Origin: Rickettsiales bacterium
Lineage (GTDB): Bacteria > Pseudomonadota > Alphaproteobacteria > Rs-D84
NCBI GenBank assembly: GCA_031288835.1
Contig: JAITQO010000002.1
Span: forward strand, 3,598 to 67,597
Reading direction: 5' to 3'
Length of the DNA: 64,000 nt
Shown: piece by piece, positions 12,821 to 52,074 of the stretch
Layout of the letters: each line of letters starts with the position of its first letter
How positions within the stretch are numbered: the stretch's first letter is position 1
Made by a program: the position numbers and the translations under genes
The notes under the pieces: generated by a model
Told to the model about the DNA's origin: nothing
What the model saw: only the letters and a program-made list of their open reading frames with translations
Database searches by the model: none

Positions 12821-13840
12821 TTAGAACCTTGCATTCAAACGAACGCCAAGTTCGGCCTTTACATCCGTTCCATTCTGGGAACCGTCATGCGCTGTATCGA
12901 ATGTATATTCGCCATACAAAGCAATCTGAATGTTATCGCTCAGCTGGTTCGCAACGGATACGGACAAAAGATATTCATCAAATCCATCGTTCAGGTTCTT
13001 GAAGCCAAGGGCATTCAGGTTGCCGTCCAAGGAGGTAATTACTGCCGCCTCTGTTCCCGGCGTAACAACATCGGCAGATGCGACTTTCTTAATTTTGTTG
13101 TCGGCATGATGTTTATATGTGAACCCGCCGCCCAGCGACCATCCGGATCCAACCTCGTAAAATGCCTTTAATCCAGCATTGTATTCGGTCGTGGATTTCA
13201 GTTCCAACGCGGCTGATTTTGCCAAGGTGGCAAACGCCGATTTGGACAAATCTATTTTATTGTTGTCATTGCCGAACGTCTGGTTGATTTCAACAAAGGC
13301 CAAGGCGGATAATTTATCCCACGTTTTTCCAATCTTGGTTCCGGCATAGAACCCCCAGCGGCCGTTCGCATAATTATCATAATTAAACGAATATGGTTTT
13401 ATGCTCGGTTTTTTCGACGGCACCAAGGCGCCTTTCATTTCCGAAACACCGCCCAGATTTGCATCCGCATAAACATCCCAAACCAACTCATTTGCGTTTT
13501 GCAAAACGCGATACGTCAATCCGACGCGCCCGACATTCAGCCCCTGGCGGTCAATATCCCCGTCGTGAGTGTATCCGAACTCGCCATTGATTGATAACCG
13601 GTCGGTAATTCCATAACCGATTGATTCGCTCAGACGCCAAATCGGGAACTCTGTCGCACCGTCATGGTCCTTCGCTTTCATCGCATTCGTGCCGTCGGCT
13701 TTCTTATACATCAATCCGACGCCCGTTTTGGAATAAACCTCGCCCGCCTTAGGGACATAGAGAGGATTCTCCAAATTCGCCGCGAATGCAGGCGCCGTAA
13801 AGGCAACCAAAGCCGCAGCCGCTTTTATTGTTTTTTTCAT
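12821..13840 (-). CDS. Outer-membrane beta-barrel porin-like protein
   Basis: Start trimmed to MKKTIKAAAALVAFTAPAFA (signal peptide, AGGAG upstream). Alternating amphipathic strands and a C-terminal ...LNARF, the terminal Phe typical of OMPs. Confidence 0.75.
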   Translation of the reverse strand: MKKTIKAAAALVAFTAPAFAANLENPLYVPKAGEVYSKTGVGLMYKKADGTNAMKAKDHDGATEFPIWRLSESIGYGITDRLSINGEFGYTHDGDIDRQGLNVGRVGLTYRVLQNANELVWDVYADANLGGVSEMKGALVPSKKPSIKPYSFNYDNYANGRWGFYAGTKIGKTWDKLSALAFVEINQTFGNDNNKIDLSKSAFATLAKSAALELKSTTEYNAGLKAFYEVGSGWSLGGGFTYKHHADNKIKKVASADVVTPGTEAAVITSLDGNLNALGFKNLNDGFDEYLLSVSVANQLSDNIQIALYGEYTFDTAHDGSQNGTDVKAELGVRLNARF

Positions 13841-14005
13841 CGTTTCACTCCTTATAGTTAGTGATGAAACTCCGACGCCCGTTGAACGGCAACATCGGGG
13901 CCTTTCGCCATACCGCCGGTTGAACCGCAACAGCATGTTTCTCTGCGAGAAGCACCCACACCTTACAAAATTTGGGAATAAATGACAAGGATTATTTTTT
14001 AACGC

Positions 14006-14033
14006 TTGCAAAAGCCGCCAAATATACTATAAT
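14006..14033 (+). promoter_or_regulatory. Sigma70-type promoter for tRNA-Lys
   Basis: TTGCAA, 16-nt spacer, TATAAT. It ends 14 nt before the tRNA. Confidence 0.55.
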
Positions 14034-14047
14034 GCCGCGCGTGAAAC

Positions 14048-14123
14048 GGAAGCGTAGCTCAGTCGGTAGAGCAAATGACTCTTAATCATTGGGTCCGGGG
14101 TTCGAATCCCCGCGCTTCCACCA
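14048..14123 (+). tRNA. tRNA-Lys (anticodon CTT)
   Basis: Folded by hand as a cloverleaf: acceptor GGAAGCG/CGCTTCC, anticodon loop CTCTTAA, T-loop TTCGAAT, encoded CCA. Confidence 0.95.
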
Positions 14124-14417: not shown

Positions 14418-15317
14418 ATGAATGAAATAACATATCAGTCGTCCGGCGGCAATATTGCCGAGTTTTACTTCGATTTTCCGTTCTTCCAAACGGATGACGT
14501 GAAGGTCATGTTAAACGGCCAGTTGTTGGAATCCGATTCATACGCTGTCCGAGGAAACGAATCGGGTGCCGCGTCCGATATTCCATACAACGGTGGAAGC
14601 GTGGAATTCCCGACCGCCCCGGCCGCCGGCGTAAAAATAACCATTTTTCGTCGATTGAAATTGGAACGCGGCATAGATTATCAACCGACGCTGCCAATCA
14701 GTCAAACAATGCTGAACCAAGACATGAGTTTTTTTATCGAATGCGCGAAGGAGTTCAACGAGCGGCTGAACAATCTGCTAGCGCTCGAAAACTTCGATGC
14801 AGAGGAAATAACTGCGCGGCTCGAAGCCATAAACGAGCAAATCGAGTCATTGGATGACCTGACAGATTTCGCGCACACGTCAGATTTAGAACCGATAACG
14901 GCCGCGATTACAAACATAAGCGCCGCCCTGCAGGAATTATCTGAACAAATTGACAATATAGAGATTCCAGAATCGCCAGCGGATTATATTGTCGAACAAA
15001 GCGAAGCGGGCGCGAACCCATGGTACCGCAAATGGAACAGCGGATGGTGCGAACAGGGCGGATTGACAAGCTCTTTTACAAATACGGAAGCAGGGTCTTC
15101 TCAGACCAAAACCATCGTCCTGCCAATTACCATGCAAGACGCAGCTTATTTTCCACAATTCAACATGGAATCTAACTCTGGCGGTTGGAGTGTTCGCGCA
15201 TTTACCATACAAAACAAAACGCCGGAAAATTTCGGCATAATCTGCGTCAATAACAATACCGCCGGCGGGACGGAAAACAACAAGGTATCATGGATAATAA
15301 AAGGCCGGGCCGCGTGA
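14418..15317 (+). CDS. Phage tail-fibre-like protein (T7 gp17-type N-terminal domain, coiled coil, C-terminal knob)
   Basis: The N-terminus (YQSSGGNIAEFYFDFPFFQTDDVKVMLNG...ITIFRRLKLERGIDYQPTLPISQTMLNQDMSFFIECAKE) follows the T7 tail-fibre N-domain pattern (Y..dG....F.iPF.....v.V.l.G...R.t...r..df.dg..l....LN....Q......eE). The centre is heptad-rich. The C-terminus has PWYRKWNSGWCEQGG, as seen in tail-fibre tip domains. Confidence 0.7.
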   Translation: MNEITYQSSGGNIAEFYFDFPFFQTDDVKVMLNGQLLESDSYAVRGNESGAASDIPYNGGSVEFPTAPAAGVKITIFRRLKLERGIDYQPTLPISQTMLNQDMSFFIECAKEFNERLNNLLALENFDAEEITARLEAINEQIESLDDLTDFAHTSDLEPITAAITNISAALQELSEQIDNIEIPESPADYIVEQSEAGANPWYRKWNSGWCEQGGLTSSFTNTEAGSSQTKTIVLPITMQDAAYFPQFNMESNSGGWSVRAFTIQNKTPENFGIICVNNNTAGGTENNKVSWIIKGRAA

Positions 15318-45060: not shown

Positions 45061-46845
45061 ATGAAATTATTCCTGTTGCCGACGCGCGAAATGGTTTTTC
45101 AGCCGGATACGACGCTTCCGATGTATTTAGAAAACATGATTTCGGTCAGGGCGGTGGACGCCGCCATCACGGCCAGCGATGAAAAGCTGAAACAAATCGT
45201 TCTGGTCGCGCAAAAAAATTGGAATTATCCGACAAACGCGAGGGACCTATATTCCATTGGGACGCTCGCGAACGTGATGCAGATACTGCGCATGCCCGAC
45301 GACACCATCCAGGTGATGATGCAGACGACCAGGCCCGTAAGATTGTCCGACATTCAGGTAAAGGACGGCATATTTTCTGCGGAATGCGCGCCAATTGAGC
45401 AAACAGACGACGGAAAAGACCCGATTGTTCTCGGCATGCGCGACTCCATCATGTCGGCGATGACTGCGATGGCGGCAAGAACGCCGAATCAAATAGATAT
45501 GAAAAAAATACGGCTGGTGGCGGATACGTATCCGCTGAACGCGTTTATAGACGCGATTATACACGCCGTGGGGATGGAGACGGAGGACGCGCTAGAGATT
45601 CTGTCGAAAAGAACATATCTTGAAAAACTGACGTTCATGCTTGAAAAAATGAAAATGAAAATCCAGCTGAGCAATATAGAAAACGACATATCCAAACGCG
45701 TGAGCTACGCGCTCGCCAACGGGCAAAAGGAAATATTCCTGCGCGAACGGCTGAACGAAATCCAAAAGGCGCTGGGCGAGGACGACGAAGACAGTTCCAA
45801 AACGCTGAAGCAAAAGATTGAAAAATCCAATATACCCGAAGACGTGAAGGAAAAGGCGTTCGCGGAATTGAAAAGAATGAAAAACATGTCCGCCTATTCG
45901 TCGGAGGCGGCGATGCTGAGGACATACCTGGAAGAACTGTTGTCGATGCCGTGGGGGAGGGCGGACAAAACAGAAATCGATTTGGAGGCGGCGAAGGCGA
46001 TTCTGGACACCGACCATTACGGAATGGAAAACGTGAAGGAGCGCATTCTGGAGCATCTGGCGGTGATGAAAAGAACCGGCTCGTCCAAGGGGACGATTCT
46101 TTGCCTTGTCGGCGCGCCCGGCGTCGGGAAGACGTCGCTGGGGCAGTCCGTGGCGAACGCCCTCATGCGAAAATACCAGCGGATTTCGCTTGGCGGCGTT
46201 TCGGACGAGGCGCACTTCCGCGGGCATCGCCGGACATATATCGGCAGTCAGCCCGGGCGGATTATGGACGCGCTGAAGAGGGCCGGAACGAACAACCCGG
46301 TGATAGTTCTCGACGAAATCGACAAAATGGGTCGCGACTATCGCGGAGACCCCGAGCACGCGCTGCTCGAGATTCTGGACCCAGAGCAGAACAAGGCGTT
46401 CCGCGACCACTATTTGGAGGTGGATTTCGATTTGTCGAACGTGATGTTCATCGCCACGGCGAACACGCTGAAAATGTCGCCGGCCCTTTTGGACAGAATG
46501 GAAATCATAGAAATGCCGAACTATTCCGTGGACGAAAAGGTCGAGATTGCGAGGCGGCATCTGCTGAAAAACGCCGCGACGGACACCGGATGGGACATAA
46601 ACGGAATCACCATCGGCGACGACACCATAAAGCACATAATCAACAATTACACGAACGAATCTGGCGTGCGGAACCTCAGGCGCGAATTGACGGCCTTGCT
46701 CCGGCGCGCGCTGTATACGACGAAATGCCAAGAGGACTCGTATGAGTTCACGACGGAAAAAGTCCGCGAGCTGCTGAACAACATACGTCCCGATGTTGGG
46801 CGCAAAATCGGCTTTCGCACCGCGACCCCGGCCGTAAGGCTGTGA
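45061..46845 (+). CDS. lon: Lon-like protein: LON N-domain and AAA+ module, with no S16 protease domain
   Basis: N-domain (LPTREMVFQPDTTLPMYL), Walker A GAPGVGKTS, Walker B VIVLDEIDKMG and lid ESGVRNLRREL. The ORF stops at 594 aa, about where GLAWT of the protease domain would begin. Neither of the other two + strand frames continues the protein. Confidence 0.85.
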   Translation: MKLFLLPTREMVFQPDTTLPMYLENMISVRAVDAAITASDEKLKQIVLVAQKNWNYPTNARDLYSIGTLANVMQILRMPDDTIQVMMQTTRPVRLSDIQVKDGIFSAECAPIEQTDDGKDPIVLGMRDSIMSAMTAMAARTPNQIDMKKIRLVADTYPLNAFIDAIIHAVGMETEDALEILSKRTYLEKLTFMLEKMKMKIQLSNIENDISKRVSYALANGQKEIFLRERLNEIQKALGEDDEDSSKTLKQKIEKSNIPEDVKEKAFAELKRMKNMSAYSSEAAMLRTYLEELLSMPWGRADKTEIDLEAAKAILDTDHYGMENVKERILEHLAVMKRTGSSKGTILCLVGAPGVGKTSLGQSVANALMRKYQRISLGGVSDEAHFRGHRRTYIGSQPGRIMDALKRAGTNNPVIVLDEIDKMGRDYRGDPEHALLEILDPEQNKAFRDHYLEVDFDLSNVMFIATANTLKMSPALLDRMEIIEMPNYSVDEKVEIARRHLLKNAATDTGWDINGITIGDDTIKHIINNYTNESGVRNLRRELTALLRRALYTTKCQEDSYEFTTEKVRELLNNIRPDVGRKIGFRTATPAVRL

Positions 46846-46895
46846 TAAAAAAACTTGAAAATCCGAAAAATATGGTATAACATTGGTTGGCTTAT

Positions 46896-46971
46896 TCGGG
46901 CGTAGTTCAGTCGGTAGAACAATGGACTGTTAATCCACAGGTCGCTGGTTCGAGTCCAGCCGCCCGAGCCA
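46896..46971 (+). tRNA. tRNA-Asn (anticodon GTT)
   Basis: Acceptor TCGGGCG/CGCCCGA, anticodon loop CTGTTAA, T-arm GCTGG-TTCGAGT-CCAGC, discriminator G and encoded CCA. Confidence 0.94.
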
Positions 46972-46979
46972 GATTTTAT

Positions 46980-47004
46980 AACCGCCAGTCAAACGGCGGT
47001 TTTT
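46980..47004 (+). terminator. Intrinsic terminator after tRNA-Asn
   Basis: AACCGCC-AGTCAAAC-GGCGGTT followed by TTT. Confidence 0.6.
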
Positions 47005-47012
47005 GCTTAGAT

Positions 47013-47136
47013 TTCCAAGCCTTTGAGCCGGTTCGTATCATTTCGATAATTATTATTAAAAAAATAGCCTTACACGAACTTTATCGAAACAAATCCAGCA
47101 AATCCAAGCCTTTCAGTGGTTCGAGTCCAACAGGCC
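47013..47136 (+). repeat. Island module copy A (two tRNA-3'-half-like sub-repeats)
   Basis: TTCCAAGCCTTTGAGCCGGTTCGT (47013-47036) and AATCCAAGCCTTTCAGTGGTTCGAGTCCAACAGGCC (47101-47136). The second resembles tRNA-Asn AATCCACAGGTCGCTGGTTCGAGTCCAGC. Confidence 0.7.
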
Positions 47137-47317
47137 TGTTTTGACATTATCGCCTAAAAGTGAAAAGGTTGCGAAATTCACAAACCGGGCAATGCTGATT
47201 CAATCCGCTTAGCCCAATCAGTCAAAAGGTCATTTCATTGGCGTGCGCGTGATTATGGAACTTTTTTAATTGTTTTTATGAAAGCCCTAATATTATAATC
47301 TTAAAAAAGGATTTGAT

Positions 47318-48118
47318 ATGAAAATAGTTGCAATCGGTGGTGGTGAAATCGGCAGAAAGAATGTAATGCCCGATGGTTCCGTATTCCAATATCCTGTTGA
47401 AACCATAGAAATTGAACAAAAGATAATTCGTCTGACAGAAAAGAAAAATCCTAAACTATTGCTATTGGCGACTGCAGCTAATGATTCTGAAATATATCTT
47501 GATACGGTTGAGCGGCATTTCGGGGAACGGCTCGGGTGTATGGTTTCGTGGCTGCAATTGGCGACACAAAATCCGACAGAGAATGAAATCCAAAAAGCTA
47601 TTTTAGAAACCGATATTATTTATGTTGGCGGCGGTAATACAAATAAAATGATACAAATATGGAAAGATAAGGGTGCCGACAAAGTCTTGAAGCAAGCATT
47701 GGACAGCGGAGTTATATTGTCTGGCATATCGGCGGGAGCAAATTGCTGGTTCAAGCATTACAGCACAGACAGCTTGGCGATTGATGCAGGTGTTGAAAAC
47801 GGCACGATGTTATCTATAGCCGACGGGCTTGGGTTTATAAATGGTGTTTGTGTTCCACATACTATGAGCGAGCCTGCTCGTGTTCCCTATGCGAAAGAAA
47901 TGTTGATGACAAAATATCCGAATGATGTTTTTTATGGTATTGATGATTTTACCGCTTTGATTTTTGAGAATGGAAAAATGCGGTCTCTTGTCAGTGCAAC
48001 CGGCAAAGAAAAAGGTGCCAAGGTTCGCAGGCTTTCAATGGCAAATGGGCAAGTCGTTGAGAGTGTAATTTCAACCACTCCCCAGCCTTTCTTTGAAAAG
48101 TCTGATTTCTGTCGTTAA
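47318..48118 (+). CDS. Peptidase S51 (dipeptidase E / cyanophycinase-like) family protein
   Basis: KIVAIGGGEIG..., IIYVGGGNT, nucleophile elbow LSGISAGANCW and a downstream CVPH. AT-rich gene. Confidence 0.82.
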   Translation: MKIVAIGGGEIGRKNVMPDGSVFQYPVETIEIEQKIIRLTEKKNPKLLLLATAANDSEIYLDTVERHFGERLGCMVSWLQLATQNPTENEIQKAILETDIIYVGGGNTNKMIQIWKDKGADKVLKQALDSGVILSGISAGANCWFKHYSTDSLAIDAGVENGTMLSIADGLGFINGVCVPHTMSEPARVPYAKEMLMTKYPNDVFYGIDDFTALIFENGKMRSLVSATGKEKGAKVRRLSMANGQVVESVISTTPQPFFEKSDFCR

Positions 48119-48140
48119 ACTTTGAAAATCCTTGCTTTCA

Positions 48141-48325
48141 TTGGCTCGGAAATTGCAAGCTGTGCCGAGCCAAGTTTTACAAGACCTCTTAAAAAGGGTC
48201 TTTTTTGTTTGTTTTCCAAGCCTTTGGACTGGTTCGTGCATATACTATTAAAAAAGTGCAGTTTTTCATCCAACACGAATCCGTCCTTAGAAATCCAAGC
48301 TTTTTCTGGCTCGTGTCCAGTTGGC
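48141..48325 (+). repeat. Island module copy B
   Basis: GGCTCGGAAATTGCAAGCTGTGCCGAGCCAAGTTTTACAA (tRNA 3'-end mimic), hairpin terminator AAGACCTCTTAAAAAGGGTCTTTTTT, then TTCCAAGCCTTTGGACTGGTTCGTG and AATCCAAGCTTTTTCTGGCTCGTGTCCAGTTGGC. Confidence 0.7.
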
Positions 48326-48784
48326 TTATTTTTCATTGATTTTGATAATTTGCTGTTTATAATTGCTATTACAAAATAAGCGGAGTGAATTTTATAATGA
48401 TTTATGTAATAACAGGATTGCCTATTATAGCGTATAATTTATTTGATATTGGCACTATGGATAACCTTATGAAATATCTGATAATAATAAGGCCATAAAC
48501 TATCCTGATGAATGCCATAATTGTAAAACAATCAAAGAGGCCAACGATTTATCTAAAACTATTGCAAAAGAAGAAAAGGTAAAAGAAGAACAACGCGAAA
48601 AGCAAATGACCACAAAAGATAAACTTATCAACAAGTTTATCAAAATCGCCATTTATTCTGTTTTTATAATAATCTTTGCAGTTATAATTAACTATATAAA
48701 ATAGAAGGCAATACTTCCGTATTCTCTCTTATTTTCTGATTGAAAAGTTTAATCTCTTGGATTAAAGTTGAAAATGTGTCCGGA

Positions 48785-48971
48785 TCGTCAGCTCGTAAAT
48801 TGCAAGACGACGCGAGCCAGGTTATACAACCGCGCCATCAAGGCGCGGTTTTTCTTTATCACCTTGGCTTTGGACTGGTTCGTGTTAAGGTTCTTAAAAG
48901 TTGCCGTTTTTTGACTTGATACGAACTTGCCTTTGGAAAACCAAGGCTTTTCTAGCTCGTGCCCAACTGGC
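48785..48971 (+). repeat. Island module copy C
   Basis: GCTCGTAAATTGCAAGACGACGCGAGCCAGGTTATACAA, hairpin AACCGCGCCATCAAGGCGCGGTTTTT, then CCTTGGCTTTGGACTGGTTCGTG and AACCAAGGCTTTTCTAGCTCGTGCCCAACTGGC. Confidence 0.7.
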
Positions 48972-48979
48972 TCTTGCAA

Positions 48980-49483
48980 TTATTTGCTGAATAATTTTTC
49001 TTTTAATTCTTGTTGATGTAAAAATATATTTTTATTATTCCACAGTTCAACAGGCTTATTGGTTAAACTTTTTGAAAAAATAACCGTGGTATCCATAAAA
49101 CTATGAACATCTTCTTTGGTATAATATTTTTCCATAGTCATACCAATTCTATGATAAAACTTGATAGCATCTGCATTTTCAATTAAATCGGTATAAAGTC
49201 TGGCAGTTTTTAGCCCCATTTTCTTTGATGCGGCCAGCCAAAATTCAAAAGCCTGTTTTGCGAATCCTTGCCCCTGTATTCTGGCAATATACCGAACCAT
49301 CCAAGCCAAGAATCATCAGGATAAGGCAAATCAACATCCCAGAGGGGGCATTTTTAATATTTGGGCCGATATCGGAAAAAACAGTTCGCGGCAAAGCCGC
49401 ACTGATTCGCATAAATGCAGGATTATGCGGGCTGCGTTATTTAGATTTTCGGTCCGGAAAGTTGCATTTGCCTGGAATTGCAT
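48980..49483 (-). pseudogene. GNAT-family acetyltransferase disrupted by two frameshifts
   Basis: Three consecutive reading-frame segments on the minus strand. First, MQFQANATFRTENLNNAARIILHLCESVRLCRELFFPISAQILK.. ends in a stop at 49331-49333. Second, ..CPLWDVDLPYPDDSWLGWFGILPEYRGKG. Third, from about 49265, FAKQAFEFWLAASKKMGLKTARLYTD...FYHRIGM. Joined, they give a normal ~168-aa GNAT with the (Q/R)xxGxG/A motif split by the second frameshift. Confidence 0.6.
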
Positions 49484-49489
49484 TATAAT
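49462..49489 (+). promoter_or_regulatory. Candidate promoter for the HD-domain gene
   Basis: TTGCAT, 16-nt spacer, TATAAT. The -10 lies in the palindrome CATTATAATG, which also contains the pseudogene's ATG on the other strand. Confidence 0.45.
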
Positions 49490-49536
49490 GCCCCGAAAAG
49501 CGCGACAGCGCGCGATAATACGAAGGGAATGAAGCG

Positions 49537-50670
49537 ATGGCGAAAGCGCCGAATTTGAAAAATGGAATCAGAGGCATACTGGAAAAACTGGAAGAGCAGG
49601 GCACAATCATGAAATATCCGGTTAAAATCCGGCCGCTGGTCATCAACAACGCGGAGCGCAAGGAAAACGAGCCCGCGGTATACAACTTGTATGCCTTCGA
49701 ATTTCCGAAAGGCTTTATGCCGCTGAATTCGATCGGGCGGGCGATGGCTTTGTCGTCCGGATTGAACAGGGTTATGTCAGAACGGTTGGACAGCATAATT
49801 GCATCGGCGCCGGACGATGTGGCGGCGAAGGCGGGCAGGCTTAAGAACTGGTCTTACAAAAAGACGAGCGAACATCCGCAAGAGGTCGTGGCGGAGGCTG
49901 AAAAAATCGCGTCGTCGGCCGAATTCAATTCTGCGTTCAAGGGGACGAACATCGCCGATTTAATTAGGCTGGCAAGGATAAACGCGTATGTTCACGACAT
50001 AGGAAGGCAGGGCGAAATAGATTTGTTGAACCTATGTTCGGTCGAATTGTCGTCGATATACGGAAAGGGAAAAGACCATGCGTTTGAAAGTTGGAAAATT
50101 TTGAAGACCGCCGGCGTGGCCGACCAGAGGATTCTCTTGCCCGTGAGATACCACGGGCTGATGGCTTACAAGGACGAGTTGGAGGCAGACCCCGATTACG
50201 CGAATTTGCCCGATGCGGGAAAAGAAGAGATGATTCGCCACATCGACTGCCTCCGCGACGCGGACAAAAGGGCGAACCTCATATCCAAGGCCATGAACGG
50301 CATGAAGGGCGTGGGCGAACTGAATAATCCGAGATACAAGGGCGATTACGATATAACTCCGGAAGCGCTGGACGGCGTTGTCAACGGGACATTCTGCGAC
50401 GTAAAGAAGGAATCGCATTACCTGGACGCCATGCTTCGCTGGCTGTCATGGTTCGACCAATTGGTCTATAAGGACGCCGGCGCGATGAAACTGAACGCCG
50501 AATTGTGGAGCAGGACGTTCGAGGAGGCGAAGATGGAATTCGCCGCGTCGAATGACAAAAACAAGGCGCCGTTTGAAAGGACGAGCGCGCTGCTGAAAAA
50601 GGCGCGCGCGGCCCAGACGCAAAGGCTGTTCGGCAACCAGATGTCGCGGCTGCGCGGACGCGAAAGATAG
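49537..50670 (+). CDS. HD-domain phosphohydrolase-like protein with unrecognised N-terminal extension
   Basis: RBS GAAGGGA. HD-type residues in order: INAYVHDIGR, KDHAFESWKIL, VRYHG and CLRDADKRANL. The first ~150 aa are unrecognised. Confidence 0.72.
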   Translation: MAKAPNLKNGIRGILEKLEEQGTIMKYPVKIRPLVINNAERKENEPAVYNLYAFEFPKGFMPLNSIGRAMALSSGLNRVMSERLDSIIASAPDDVAAKAGRLKNWSYKKTSEHPQEVVAEAEKIASSAEFNSAFKGTNIADLIRLARINAYVHDIGRQGEIDLLNLCSVELSSIYGKGKDHAFESWKILKTAGVADQRILLPVRYHGLMAYKDELEADPDYANLPDAGKEEMIRHIDCLRDADKRANLISKAMNGMKGVGELNNPRYKGDYDITPEALDGVVNGTFCDVKKESHYLDAMLRWLSWFDQLVYKDAGAMKLNAELWSRTFEEAKMEFAASNDKNKAPFERTSALLKKARAAQTQRLFGNQMSRLRGRER

Positions 50671-50701
50671 ATTATGAACAAAAAAATCGTTGGGGATTGC
50701 C

Positions 50702-50731
50702 GGCTCGATAATTGCAAGCTATCCCGAGCCA
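50702..50731 (+). repeat. Island module copy D (first element only)
   Basis: GGCTCGATAATTGCAAGCTATCCCGAGCCA followed by ATAATTTATAA. Confidence 0.6.
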
Positions 50732-50840
50732 ATAATTTATAATATCAAAAAAATTAAACGCCGATAAACCGAAATCTATCAACAACGCATACGGGAAGTG
50801 GCAAACCGCGCCCGTAGCACCGAAAGAACAGGAGGACGAT

Positions 50841-51071
50841 ATGACAGATACGAACAAAAAAACGCCGAAAAAAGGAATCCGGAAATGGCATGGTATTTCC
50901 GCAAACGTTCCGTTTTATTCCGAAACGGCAAGGGATGATATGTATTACAACATAATGATAAGAGGCAGAGAGCCGCTGAATATCAAATGTATAAAACACG
51001 GAGAATATCTGCAGGATGTGCGCGAAAGGGGGATAAAGCCCCGGGTGACAAGACCCGGCAGGCATAAATGA
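50841..51071 (+). CDS. Small basic hypothetical protein (76 aa)
   Basis: Strong AGGAGG RBS 7 nt upstream of the ATG. No motif recognised. Confidence 0.55.
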   Translation: MTDTNKKTPKKGIRKWHGISANVPFYSETARDDMYYNIMIRGREPLNIKCIKHGEYLQDVRERGIKPRVTRPGRHK

Positions 51072-51138
51072 ACCAAAACGGGCGTAAAAATAAGAGCCGC
51101 GGCGAAAGACGGCGAAAGACAAATTAAATTACTTTTTT

Positions 51139-52074
51139 TTGATATTGGAAAATATTCCTGTATCATTGCGGCAAAAGATAGGGCAAATGGACACCGCTTC
51201 TTACAAATCGGAAATCTACCAATATCTGCATCCCGAAGGCACTCTGGGATACATGCTTGAAAAAATGCGATACAGGCGGAAAAACGAATTCCTGCGAAAA
51301 ATCCGCGATAATATCAAATGGCTTAATCTGGACGAGATGGCGGCCATGACCGTTCTTGGCAAAATCCGGGCGCAAATATCGGGATACAAGAGCATGCTCG
51401 AAAGCAAAAGGATGTCCGGGGCGGAAATATGCAAGGGCGTCGACAATCTGATGAGTCAGACCTCTTGGGTTTACAAAAAGGCGGGCGGGCGCAAAACATT
51501 GACGCAGCCCAAGAGCGGGCCGCAAAAATCGCGAATCGTCAAAACCGATTCCGAAACGCAGATATTCGCGAGCGAAAAGGAATGGATTGAGAGCATATAT
51601 ATGCTTCTGCCGGCGGACAGGCAGAACGAAAACTACTCCATGGTCGAATTCCGCGGAGAAAAAACGGAATTGGGATACGACCCGAACGGACGCGGGGAAT
51701 ATTCCCAATTTATCCGCCCGAACGCCGCCGCGAACGAAATAAACTTCGTCTACGGCGGCAGGCGCCCCGACACGACGCTAATATGCGCGACGCTGCGCAG
51801 CCGGATTGCCGGCGCAATGAAGATAGGCGGGGGATTCTTTGTAAAGTTCGACGACATGTCGCCGGATTATTTCAGTTCCGCCTTCATAAAGGCGATGGCA
51901 ATCGTGTATTCTGAAAATCCGGCCGATTATCTGCAAACGGTGGGCGGGCTGGTCATAAACGGGAAAGAGCGCGACATATCCCTGGTTCTGCGCCTCGTAG
52001 ACCTTAAGAAAGCGGAAAAATCCCGCAATATCGCGCTGAAAAGGCGCATAAGCGAAATGGCGCGCGCCGCGTGA
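51139..52074 (+). CDS. Hypothetical protein (about 300 aa, start uncertain)
   Basis: Long ORF with ordinary codon usage. The track start is a TTG, and the first ATG is at 51187 (MDTASYKSE). No motif recognised. Confidence 0.6.
   Translation: MILENIPVSLRQKIGQMDTASYKSEIYQYLHPEGTLGYMLEKMRYRRKNEFLRKIRDNIKWLNLDEMAAMTVLGKIRAQISGYKSMLESKRMSGAEICKGVDNLMSQTSWVYKKAGGRKTLTQPKSGPQKSRIVKTDSETQIFASEKEWIESIYMLLPADRQNENYSMVEFRGEKTELGYDPNGRGEYSQFIRPNAAANEINFVYGGRRPDTTLICATLRSRIAGAMKIGGGFFVKFDDMSPDYFSSAFIKAMAIVYSENPADYLQTVGGLVINGKERDISLVLRLVDLKKAEKSRNIALKRRISEMARAA

Follow-up and report, generated by a model that had tools for sequence, protein, structure and literature searches.

A tandem array at a tRNA-Asn gene whose units are candidate passengers of a large serine recombinase

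A contig of a Rickettsiales bacterium (JAITQO010000002.1 of assembly GCA_031288835.1; positions 3,598 to 67,597, a stretch of 64,000 nucleotides that we call the window) carries a run of small units directly behind a tRNA-Asn gene. We read this run, at a probability of about 0.6, as a tandem array of three non-autonomous cassettes that depend on a serine recombinase and were inserted at the CGAGCCA that ends the tRNA gene. Each unit starts with a related stretch of non-coding DNA, the left-end module, and closes with a short conserved box, the opposite strand of which spells a peptide. The most plausible source of this peptide is a large serine recombinase (LSR) that has attP, its attachment site, inside its own gene: the peptide would be the native C-terminal tail of such an enzyme. 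From these sequences we infer that an LSR, and not a tyrosine integrase, would move the cassettes, and that the array in the window would still be mobile.

Core, box, module and tail at the junctions

The last 7 nt of the tRNA-Asn gene, CGAGCCA (46965-46971), form a core that is common to every cassette junction. At the right end of each cassette the core is preceded by the box, and the two together follow the 29-nt pattern GCTCG-NW-AATTGCAAG-N6-CGAGCCA (also written GCTCGNWAATTGCAAGN6CGAGCCA). This pattern occurs at 48144-48172, 48791-48819 and 50703-50731 (boxes B, C and D) and, even with three mismatches allowed, nowhere else in the 64 kb; 100 shuffles of the window contained no match, that is, three are observed against zero expected. 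Upon comparing the junctions, we noticed a fixed geometry around the core. TTGCAA ends 7 nt ahead of it in 22 of 22 true boxes, TT(G/A)CAA begins 4 nt past it, on the P′ side, in most junctions, and both hexamers lie 8 nt from the GA of C-GA-GCCA, which is the centre of symmetry. The position of this dyad centre predicts a crossover at the GA. Aligned with one another, the junctions appear as hybrid att sites of the attL/attR kind, and the locus comprises four of them: tRNA plus module, box plus module twice, and box plus flank.

An earlier, sequence-only reading of this DNA had taken the boxes for mimics of the tRNA-Asn 3′ end and the repeats for integration scars that hold a tRNA 3′ half. 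Identity between box and resident tRNA is limited to 7-9 nt, (CC)CGAGCCA, in the window and to at most 12 nt in other loci; ARAGORN calls no tRNA at boxes B, C or D, and the Rfam tRNA covariance model, at E≤10 over 46000-52000, matches solely the genuine tRNA-Asn. The scar interpretation does not survive these results, and the supposed mimic would instead be a conserved arm borne by the element, with a severed LSR tail on its opposite strand. What holds up is the proposal of repeated site-specific insertion at one att site, the tRNA-Asn 3′ end.

The ~170 nt that follow CGAGCCA are homologous at the left ends of all three cassettes (modules A, B and C). Local alignments score z values of 20.5 (A-B), 9.5 (A-C) and 19.6 (B-C) against dinucleotide shuffles, a similarity above that of shuffled sequence, as the earlier reading required, and a profile built from other genomes only recovers each of the three (E-values in Table 1) with no further match in the window. 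The modules start with a short P′-like RRTTTTRYAA and carry, 9-10 nt past each core, a predicted terminator-like hairpin (46980-47001, 48181-48202 and 48828-48850), where such hairpins had been claimed. In module A, the P′-like GATTTTATAA is followed by the terminator, a sub-repeat CCAAGCCTTTGAGCCGGTTCG, an AT-rich inverted-repeat region and a pseudo T-arm AATCCAAGCCTTTCAGTGGTTCGAGTCCA (47100-47129); a promoter probably lies after the T-arm-like repeats. The sub-repeat that had been likened to the T-arm half of tRNA-Asn belongs to the non-coding ~170-bp left-end module that the cassettes share. The count of four module copies likewise comes down to three, A, B and C, as the fourth (D) is a box followed by an unrelated flank. 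This flank, from 50732 (ATAATTTATAATATC...), shows no relation to the module (z 1.6-2.6, dinucleotide shuffles) and is taken to be the original chromosomal sequence. We ruled out the module as a coding sequence or as an attP-spanning gene, since the frame test described next for the tail gave it no preferred frame.

On the minus strand, every box reads on into C-K-(T/S)-W-L-G-x-x-C-N-(L/Y)-R-A-x-x-P-x-x-F-x-x-L-A-R-E-I-x-x-F-K..., in a frame that has no consistent start codon and meets its stop codon a few residues, variable in number, after the conserved part. We scored the six frames of 12 subfamily-1 copies, with a mean nucleotide identity of 51%, by pairwise BLOSUM62. The tail frame reaches a mean of 1.75 with one stop in 240 codons, as against -0.43 to 0.70 and 11-33 stops in the other five, and a single one of its columns uses all six leucine codons (TTA, TTG, CTT, CTC, CTA and CTG). 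Judged by this pattern of conservation, the tail is coding. We looked for long proteins with the tail in a word index of 5.8 billion proteins and by exhaustive profile comparison with 1.84 billion representatives; both yielded only open reading frames (ORFs) of 50-122 aa, some of which adjoin other tRNA-like cores, such as GCGCACCA in locus L025 (L numbers designate the loci that we collected). The tail has no match in Pfam or PHROGs, and its hidden Markov model (HMM), run against all stop-to-stop ORFs of the loci collected by then, hit short ORFs only. A split P4-like integrase and the neighbouring ORFs were dismissed as sources of the tail for want of similarity.

Recombinase genes that read into the core

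The link between tail and recombinase emerged when we listed the ORFs that cross tRNA-Asn ends in the frame of the tail. In L036, an ORF at 3-542 that is cut by the contig end reads ...KKPFAQMLETKGCLSW and then, into the tRNA-Asn 3′ half, LGQLDSNQ and a stop. Its match (BLASTP 2e-15; tblastn 2e-7) is the C-terminal stretch of 180 residues in a protein of 522 aa from L040, a human-gut contig labelled 'Bacteriophage sp.', and this protein contains the full domain set of an LSR (Resolvase, Recombinase and Zn_ribbon_recom). The L040 ORF runs antisense through a whole tRNA-Leu gene, as ...KIGACKDW followed by CPEEDSN.... A homologous 'recombinase family protein' of Legionella adelaidensis NCTC12735 (L041; tblastn 5e-5) enters a tRNA-Asn gene as ...TTRKPFDVFLNMPHRPK followed by WLPGQDLNL and a stop, its residues ahead of the core being RKPFDVFLNMPHRPK. 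LSR genes are present in related loci only: in L040, as a fragment in L036, and in L041. In these proteins the codons up to the tryptophan of the tail follow (G/A/V)-C-(K/L)-x-W, which matches what cassettes encode on the right-hand side of their core; written as DNA, the five codons give TTTACAA or TTTGCAA, 4 nt from the core.

The Legionella locus provides both halves of such a gene. At 12.4 kb upstream of the LSR, at least its last 45 nt and the core are repeated, and the repeat, ...RKPFDVFLNMPHRPK followed by WLP, runs into a 33-aa tail with a stop (...HRPK, then WLPLVSILRTQRREEVVNFGRCYSSIIPVDNIKRAC). This distal copy is what remains, at the 3′ side, of another recombinase gene, and across the core it is fused to the tail that the first element left behind. 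LSR reading frames run across the att core at three independent loci, L036, L040 and L041/L042 (with both halves seen, 12.4 kb apart, in the last), and the window holds 3′ fragments only. Relatives of the L036 and L040 LSRs were absent from viral contigs.

The second Legionella copy was cut by an IS3-family element with orfA and orfB (34961-36123 of L042, equal to 239960-241122 of NZ_LR134433.1); it keeps its last ~35 codons ahead of the core, and the ORF called there is 97 aa long including the tail. The replicon, NZ_LR134433.1, is 365 kb long and labelled a plasmid, yet carries rho, fumC, uvrB and tRNA genes.

Recurrence of the architecture and cargo of the array

A scan for the box retrieved 7 loci from a collection of one genome per species and 10 from a metagenome collection, mostly metagenome-assembled genomes (MAGs) named 'Alphaproteobacteria bacterium' and termite-gut metagenomes. 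No box was found in viral contigs, and no junction had a DNA match in plasmid and phage collections. The module profile detects one to three extra modules in most of the box loci, and throughout 15 loci modules always stand after a tRNA-Asn 3′ end, full or partial, or after a box. The cassette architecture adjoins tRNA-Asn in more than 10 other contigs, with differing cargo. Units between successive cores measure 620-1900 bp elsewhere, have a GC content of 0.30-0.48 and mostly hold a single gene in either orientation; the cargo comprises S51, GNAT, HD, CutA1, MazG, CdiA_C (CdiA-CT-like), DUF218, NERD, an ART-like protein, DNA methylases and McrBC/KAP. As in the window, the arrays of L005 and L022 end with box and core and then an unrelated flank.

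Two comparisons bear on the individual cassette. L018 is orthologous to the window locus over the 3′ end of a Lon-like gene, the tRNA-Asn and the first module (70% nucleotide identity over 650 nt), and its cassettes differ from those of the window. In two metagenomes, L002 and L019, a two-gene cassette is 96% identical up to a point within CGAGCCAAGTTTTACA, at the core, and the units downstream differ. The arrays are therefore mosaic at the level of the cassette, and the units behave as the cassettes that the sequence-only reading had suspected; the decay of full islands that it also considered is unneeded given a compact architecture (0.6-1.9 kb, mostly one gene) that recurs in many genomes. 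Three relatives whose Lon-like proteins are 70-75% identical to that of the window are not syntenic with it, and one of them, L022, has an array of its own at its own tRNA-Asn.

Some of the collected loci show further features. L003 (CAZJGX010000049.1, 6.5 kb), binned as Muribaculaceae, shares its tRNA-Asn allele, module and box with the alphaproteobacterial loci, owing either to mis-binning or to passage of the element between phyla. In L018 (1905-2010) a GC-rich insert of 76 nt splits the box between AAATT and GCAAG, and in L006 (2460-2510, equal to L017 near 6500) the box is cut after TTGCAAG and a GC-rich stretch of 36 nt lies within the tail; a tiny insertion element that targets the box may account for both. 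Gene-less inserts of 190-240 nt lie past the tRNA-Asn core in L022 (3004-3207), L005 (5780-5607, minus strand) and L030 (18173-17936, minus strand), flanked in L022 by 18-nt repeats of the tRNA-Asn 3′ end and followed in L005 and L030 by a copy of the tRNA-Asn end; they are a third type of occupant at this site. Yet another left-end type follows the core in L007 (2871-3100, AGAATTCCGCGCC...) and L030 (9361-9140, minus strand, AAGATTCCGGGGC...), with repeated TGGGGCAC and TGCCCC motifs that look like arm sites of yet another integrase.

In the window, the array spans 46972-50731 and divides into the three units of Table 1. Their composition departs from the flanks (GC 0.51-0.53), as had been proposed, except for the HD part of cassette 3, which is host-like; the HD ORF is counted within the array because box D comes after it, and it may be true cargo or a second, fused unit. 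The gene content is as the sequence-only reading had it: an S51 peptidase, an AT-rich decayed ORF, a frameshifted GNAT gene on the minus strand and an HD-domain gene. PADLOC gave no convincing match for the cargo. The S51 ORF extends 48 nt into the region of the opposite-strand tail, so that its last residues (...PQPFFEKSDFCR) come from element-end sequence; a cargo ORF of L014 also terminates within the box.

Table 1. Features of the tRNA-Asn locus in the window
Feature	Position	Strand	Size and GC	Content or basis
tRNA-Asn(GTT), proposed attB	46896-46971	+		ARAGORN; Rfam tRNA 71.8 bits; core shared with boxes
Cassette 1	46972-48172		1201 bp, GC 0.41	S51 peptidase
Module A, left end of cassette 1	46972-47142	+		Alignment, repeats, nhmmer E=7.5e-15, terminator scan
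S51-family peptidase, cargo of cassette 1	47318-48118	+	266 aa	Pfam PF03575, 7.6e-39
Right end of cassette 1, start-less frame W-LGTACNFRANESKDFQSLTTEIRLFKERLGSG-stop	48071-48172	-		Translation, frame test, HMM 7e-19
Box B + core GGCTCGGAAATTGCAAGCTGTGCCGAGCCA	48143-48172	+		Junction of cassettes 1/2
Cassette 2	48173-48819		647 bp, GC 0.32	Frameshifted small ORF
Module B, left end of cassette 2	48173-48332	+		Alignment; nhmmer E=8.4e-18
Decayed cargo of cassette 2, frameshifted small membrane-protein-like ORF	48398-48705	+		Three-frame translation
Right end of cassette 2, tail W-LASSCNLRADDPDTFSTLIQEIKLFNQKIRENTEVLPSILYS-stop	48688-48819	-		Translation, frame test, HMM 2.8e-17
Box C + core AGCTCGTAAATTGCAAGACGACGCGAGCCA	48790-48819	+		Junction of cassettes 2/3
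Cassette 3	48820-50731		1912 bp, GC 0.38 then 0.53	Frameshifted GNAT (-), then HD-domain ORF
Module C, left end of cassette 3	48820-48973	+		Alignment; nhmmer E=7.1e-14
GNAT acetyltransferase pseudogene	48980-49412	-		Frameshift near 49300, N-terminus truncated; PF00583 on C-terminal part
HD-domain protein	49537-50670	+	377 aa, GC 0.53	Weak Pfam HD match, 1.2e-3
Right end of cassette 3, shortened tail W-LGIACNYRAGNPQRFFCS-stop	50672-50731	-		Translation, HMM 8.9e-8
Box D + core GGCTCGATAATTGCAAGCTATCCCGAGCCA	50702-50731	+		attR-type terminus of array

Outside the array, the upstream 'Lon' gene (45061-46845, 594 aa) encodes substrate-binding, AAA+ and lid domains without a protease domain. It was not shortened by insertions: thousands of homologues of 585-596 aa with the same domain set occur in alphaproteobacterial MAGs. 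A tRNA-Lys gene (14048-14123) stands in a stretch of lower GC content between two ORFs without a Pfam match, 12821-14011 (minus strand) and 14418-15317 (plus strand), and further AT-rich patches (GC 0.38-0.43) lie at 30-32 kb and 56-57 kb of the window; all three places may be other insertions.

A proposed mechanism, its rivals and known systems

The absence of an integrase from the window, already claimed by the sequence-only reading, was confirmed for tyrosine and serine recombinases alike: tblastn with the P4-like tyrosine integrase and with LSR sequences, Pfam on the unannotated ORFs of 170-450 aa and the annotation of the remaining genes all found none. The units are therefore at most non-autonomous derivatives of LSR elements. 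In the mechanism that we propose, insertion would proceed by conservative site-specific recombination at the last bases of tRNA-Asn. In the free form of an autonomous element, the LSR gene would span its attP. Integration at the tRNA CCA would restore the tRNA and cut the LSR gene, such that the body comes to lie beside the tRNA and reads into its antisense strand, and the box with the LSR tail is left at the far end of the element. A cassette would consist of the ~170-bp non-coding left module, one or two cargo genes and the right end, that is, the box in the form (Y)CTCG-NW-AATTGCAAG-N6 plus the core, whose opposite strand would be the last ~30-45 codons of the LSR. Box, core and tail would have been retained, together with the ~15 nt that open the P′ side, the module would stand where the recombinase body had been, and the terminator of the module would insulate the unit from transcription of the tRNA or of the preceding cassette. 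Because the cassettes lack a recombinase body, they would have to be moved in trans by an LSR elsewhere, or else be stranded by now. Serine integrases make do with short att sites and require no arm sites, so passengers could integrate in trans.

We tentatively carry this one step further, to a proposal that we regard as doubtful: the tails could be working spare parts, and the whole a serine-recombinase counterpart of the integron. An LSR that lands directly at the tRNA would then yield a tail-less enzyme, whereas one that lands behind a cassette would have its gene completed by that cassette's tail. With the tail supplied by a neighbouring cassette, position in the array would switch the activity, stability or directionality of the recombinase. 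Tails on cassettes without a recombinase would stay translatable under selection, and the cassettes themselves could be excised, shuffled and re-inserted at the tRNA CCA end with att sites of ~50 bp. The Legionella locus has a body-to-tail junction of this kind, in which the second LSR gene is only a remnant.

Several findings speak against cassettes driven by an LSR. The likeness of the Legionella tail to the cassette tails was seen position by position by eye, and the tail HMM gives it no significant score. The sole alphaproteobacterial LSR that we saw, that of L036, is cut off by the end of its contig and amounts to 179 aa, and the two protein searches found no intact LSR gene with a tail of the cassette type. 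Subfamily-2 tails are weak in coding signal, and several tails are truncated, as relics would be. The only other copy of the window locus, L001, has the identical gene order. Lastly, an 8.4-kb integrase island between two tRNA halves in L030 starts with a module (nhmmer 3e-28), so the module may be, or double as, an arm of a tyrosine integrase.

This last point belongs to a rival explanation in which a P4-like tyrosine integrase family moves the cassettes, the module being its P′ arm and the serine tail a relic. Integrases with Arm-DNA-bind_3 and Phage_integrase domains do adjoin partial tRNA-Asn halves followed by modules in L002 and L039. The integrase islands also carry TTTGCTACC arm repeats, with a similar TTTGCTA past the terminator in several modules, and in the copies read by eye the inverted repeat of the module shares a subfamily-specific YTCGATAATT or YTCGTRAATT with the left arm of the box, to which cassette 3 of the window is an exception. 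We nonetheless consider it unlikely that these enzymes move the cassettes: the islands use a tRNA identity block of ~47 nt and a P arm with three TTTGCTACC, both of which are missing from cassette right ends, the module behind the displaced tRNA half in L002 and L039 may belong to the next cassette, and tblastn finds no P4-like integrase in the window. The box, the fixed geometry of TTGCAA and the conservation of the tail as protein would also be left unexplained. Nor do we see much chance that the array is a fossil, in which successive full serine-recombinase elements were deleted down to one gene plus ends and nothing moves today. Pseudogenes in cassettes 2 and 3, the truncated tail at box D and the degenerated subfamily-2 tails, the absence of a recombinase within 64 kb and the identical arrangement in the only other copy of the contig would all fit a fossil. 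Independent deletions, however, would not repeatedly leave the same ~170-bp module in dozens of units of different genera, and a 96%-identical cassette with different neighbours in two samples, as well as a related genome with different cassettes at the orthologous locus, argue against it.

The single-gene units in arrays and the 7-bp core, reminiscent of attI x attC recombination, also bring to mind an integron-like or HUH-type system, in which the box would function in single-stranded form as a hairpin (an attC or a rolling-circle end). The box can indeed fold as GGCTCG...CGAGCC around a conserved loop AATTGCAAG. Yet 20 distinct boxes show no compensatory change in the stem, where positions 1-2 of the left arm vary uncompensated and only CTCG/CGAG is constant, z-scores for folding are modest or lacking (-2.4, -3.6 and -0.7), none of the loci showed a gene for IntI or an HUH protein, and the cassettes have their own terminators and both orientations, all of which makes this explanation improbable. 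Hardly credible at all is a local duplication of regulatory units that do not move, be they terminator-promoter insulators or RNA elements: each module does have an intrinsic terminator and promoter-like hexamers, but Rfam matches only the tRNA, copies within one array are only ~70-80% alike and carry unrelated cargo, and across genera no unit stands anywhere but at a tRNA-Asn end or behind a box. Two other candidates were set aside. Elements that exploit Xer (IMEX) use a dif-like site of 28 bp with XerC and XerD arms; compared by eye with the E. coli dif consensus, the boxes are similar in the inner ATAA...TTAT alone and lack the XerD-arm consensus. Ends of the IS200/IS605 and IS91 types were dropped on sequence grounds.

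P4-like integrase islands beside a ~47-nt tRNA-Asn 3′ half lie in L002 (929-4531), L030 (9362-17935), L036 (513-2693) and L039 (1187-3478), with three TTTGCTACC arm repeats read in the first three, and carry Fic, HEPN, HNH, Slam/SlipAM, AAA_14-DUF4143 and restriction-modification genes. Public data hold 845 homologues of the integrase at E≤1e-20. One candidate, P0229, was ruled out as an integrase of the same genome, as it comes from another assembly and sits at a tRNA-Leu.

If the LSR-driven array is real, it implies an LSR family that targets tRNA 3′ ends with attP in its own reading frame. Integration would then rewrite the C-terminus of the LSR and so provide a built-in sensor of the integrated versus the free state; to our knowledge, such rewriting has so far been known only for tyrosine systems and a phage repressor. 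There would further be a class of very small cassettes, without a recombinase, that depend on LSRs for their movement and accumulate at one tRNA, a route by which accessory and conflict genes build up in uncultured gut Alphaproteobacteria. Island finders that need an integrase or a long tRNA repeat would miss these cassettes, and the compact att sites and tRNA-directed serine integrases would be candidates for genome engineering. Were the array merely a fossil, it would be an ordinary tRNA hotspot with an instructive scar. In the literature, of which our coverage is incomplete, we found no description of an LSR split at tRNA ends, nor of arrays of single-gene passengers that keep its tail.

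Several known systems resemble parts of this arrangement. With phiC31, Bxb1 and A118, the L040 protein shares the combination of Resolvase, Recombinase and Zn ribbon, and the system would share with them short att sites with little identity between attP and attB. Known serine integrases rarely use tRNA genes, and we know of none that carries attP inside its own 3′ end; an attP within the gene is a feature of SSV1-type split integrases and of intP/intX of Mx8. tRNA attB sites are the rule for tyrosine integrases, and in the integration-dependent immunity of BPs-type mycobacteriophages, attP lies in a coding sequence and integration at a tRNA 3′ end swaps the C-terminal part for host codons (PMC9262239). 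Like these phages, L036, L040 and L041/L042 have a gene split at a tRNA; in BPs the split gene is the repressor, and in BPs, SSV1 and Mx8 alike the recombinase is a tyrosine integrase, whereas here the split gene is the LSR. Unlike BPs, SSV1 and Mx8, the severed tail is also present on many recombinase-less cassettes.

Tandem accretion at tRNA genes and recombinase-less cis-mobilizable elements (CIMEs) are already established (PMC4383910; PMC5704250; bioRxiv 10.1101/2020.12.28.424599). Tycheposons integrate repeatedly at one tRNA and push older elements outward with att repeats in between (bioRxiv 10.1101/2020.12.28.424599), and classical tRNA island arrays (Islander/TIGER) likewise arise by repeated integration at one tRNA (PMC4383910). 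Each of those elements encodes a tyrosine integrase, and the tRNA fragments that separate them run to tens of nucleotides, in contrast to the 7-9 nt and the lack of a recombinase per unit here; an integrase together with a tRNA repeat of ~15-50 nt, which defines classical P4-like islands, is present in L002, L030, L036 and L039 and missing from the window. CIMEs have lost their integration genes, keep attL and attR and stand in tandem with related elements at one att site; they are described as decayed integrative and conjugative or integrative and mobilizable elements of many kilobases (PMC5704250). The units of the window are CIME-like in being bounded by cores and lacking a recombinase. Unlike CIMEs, they are of a type measuring 0.6-1.9 kb, mostly with one gene and a dedicated non-coding left module, that recurs across genera, and no conjugation genes or remnants were seen. 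The integron is similar in layout, with single-gene units, each bounded by a recombination site whose 7-bp core is also found at the fixed point of insertion, miscellaneous accessory and conflict cargo, and arrays that can lack a nearby integrase. It differs in that the window has no IntI or other tyrosine recombinase and the insertion point is a tRNA 3′ end. In addition, the box, unlike attC, is conserved in sequence without covariation of its stem, and the cassettes come in both orientations with a terminator, and probably a promoter, of their own.

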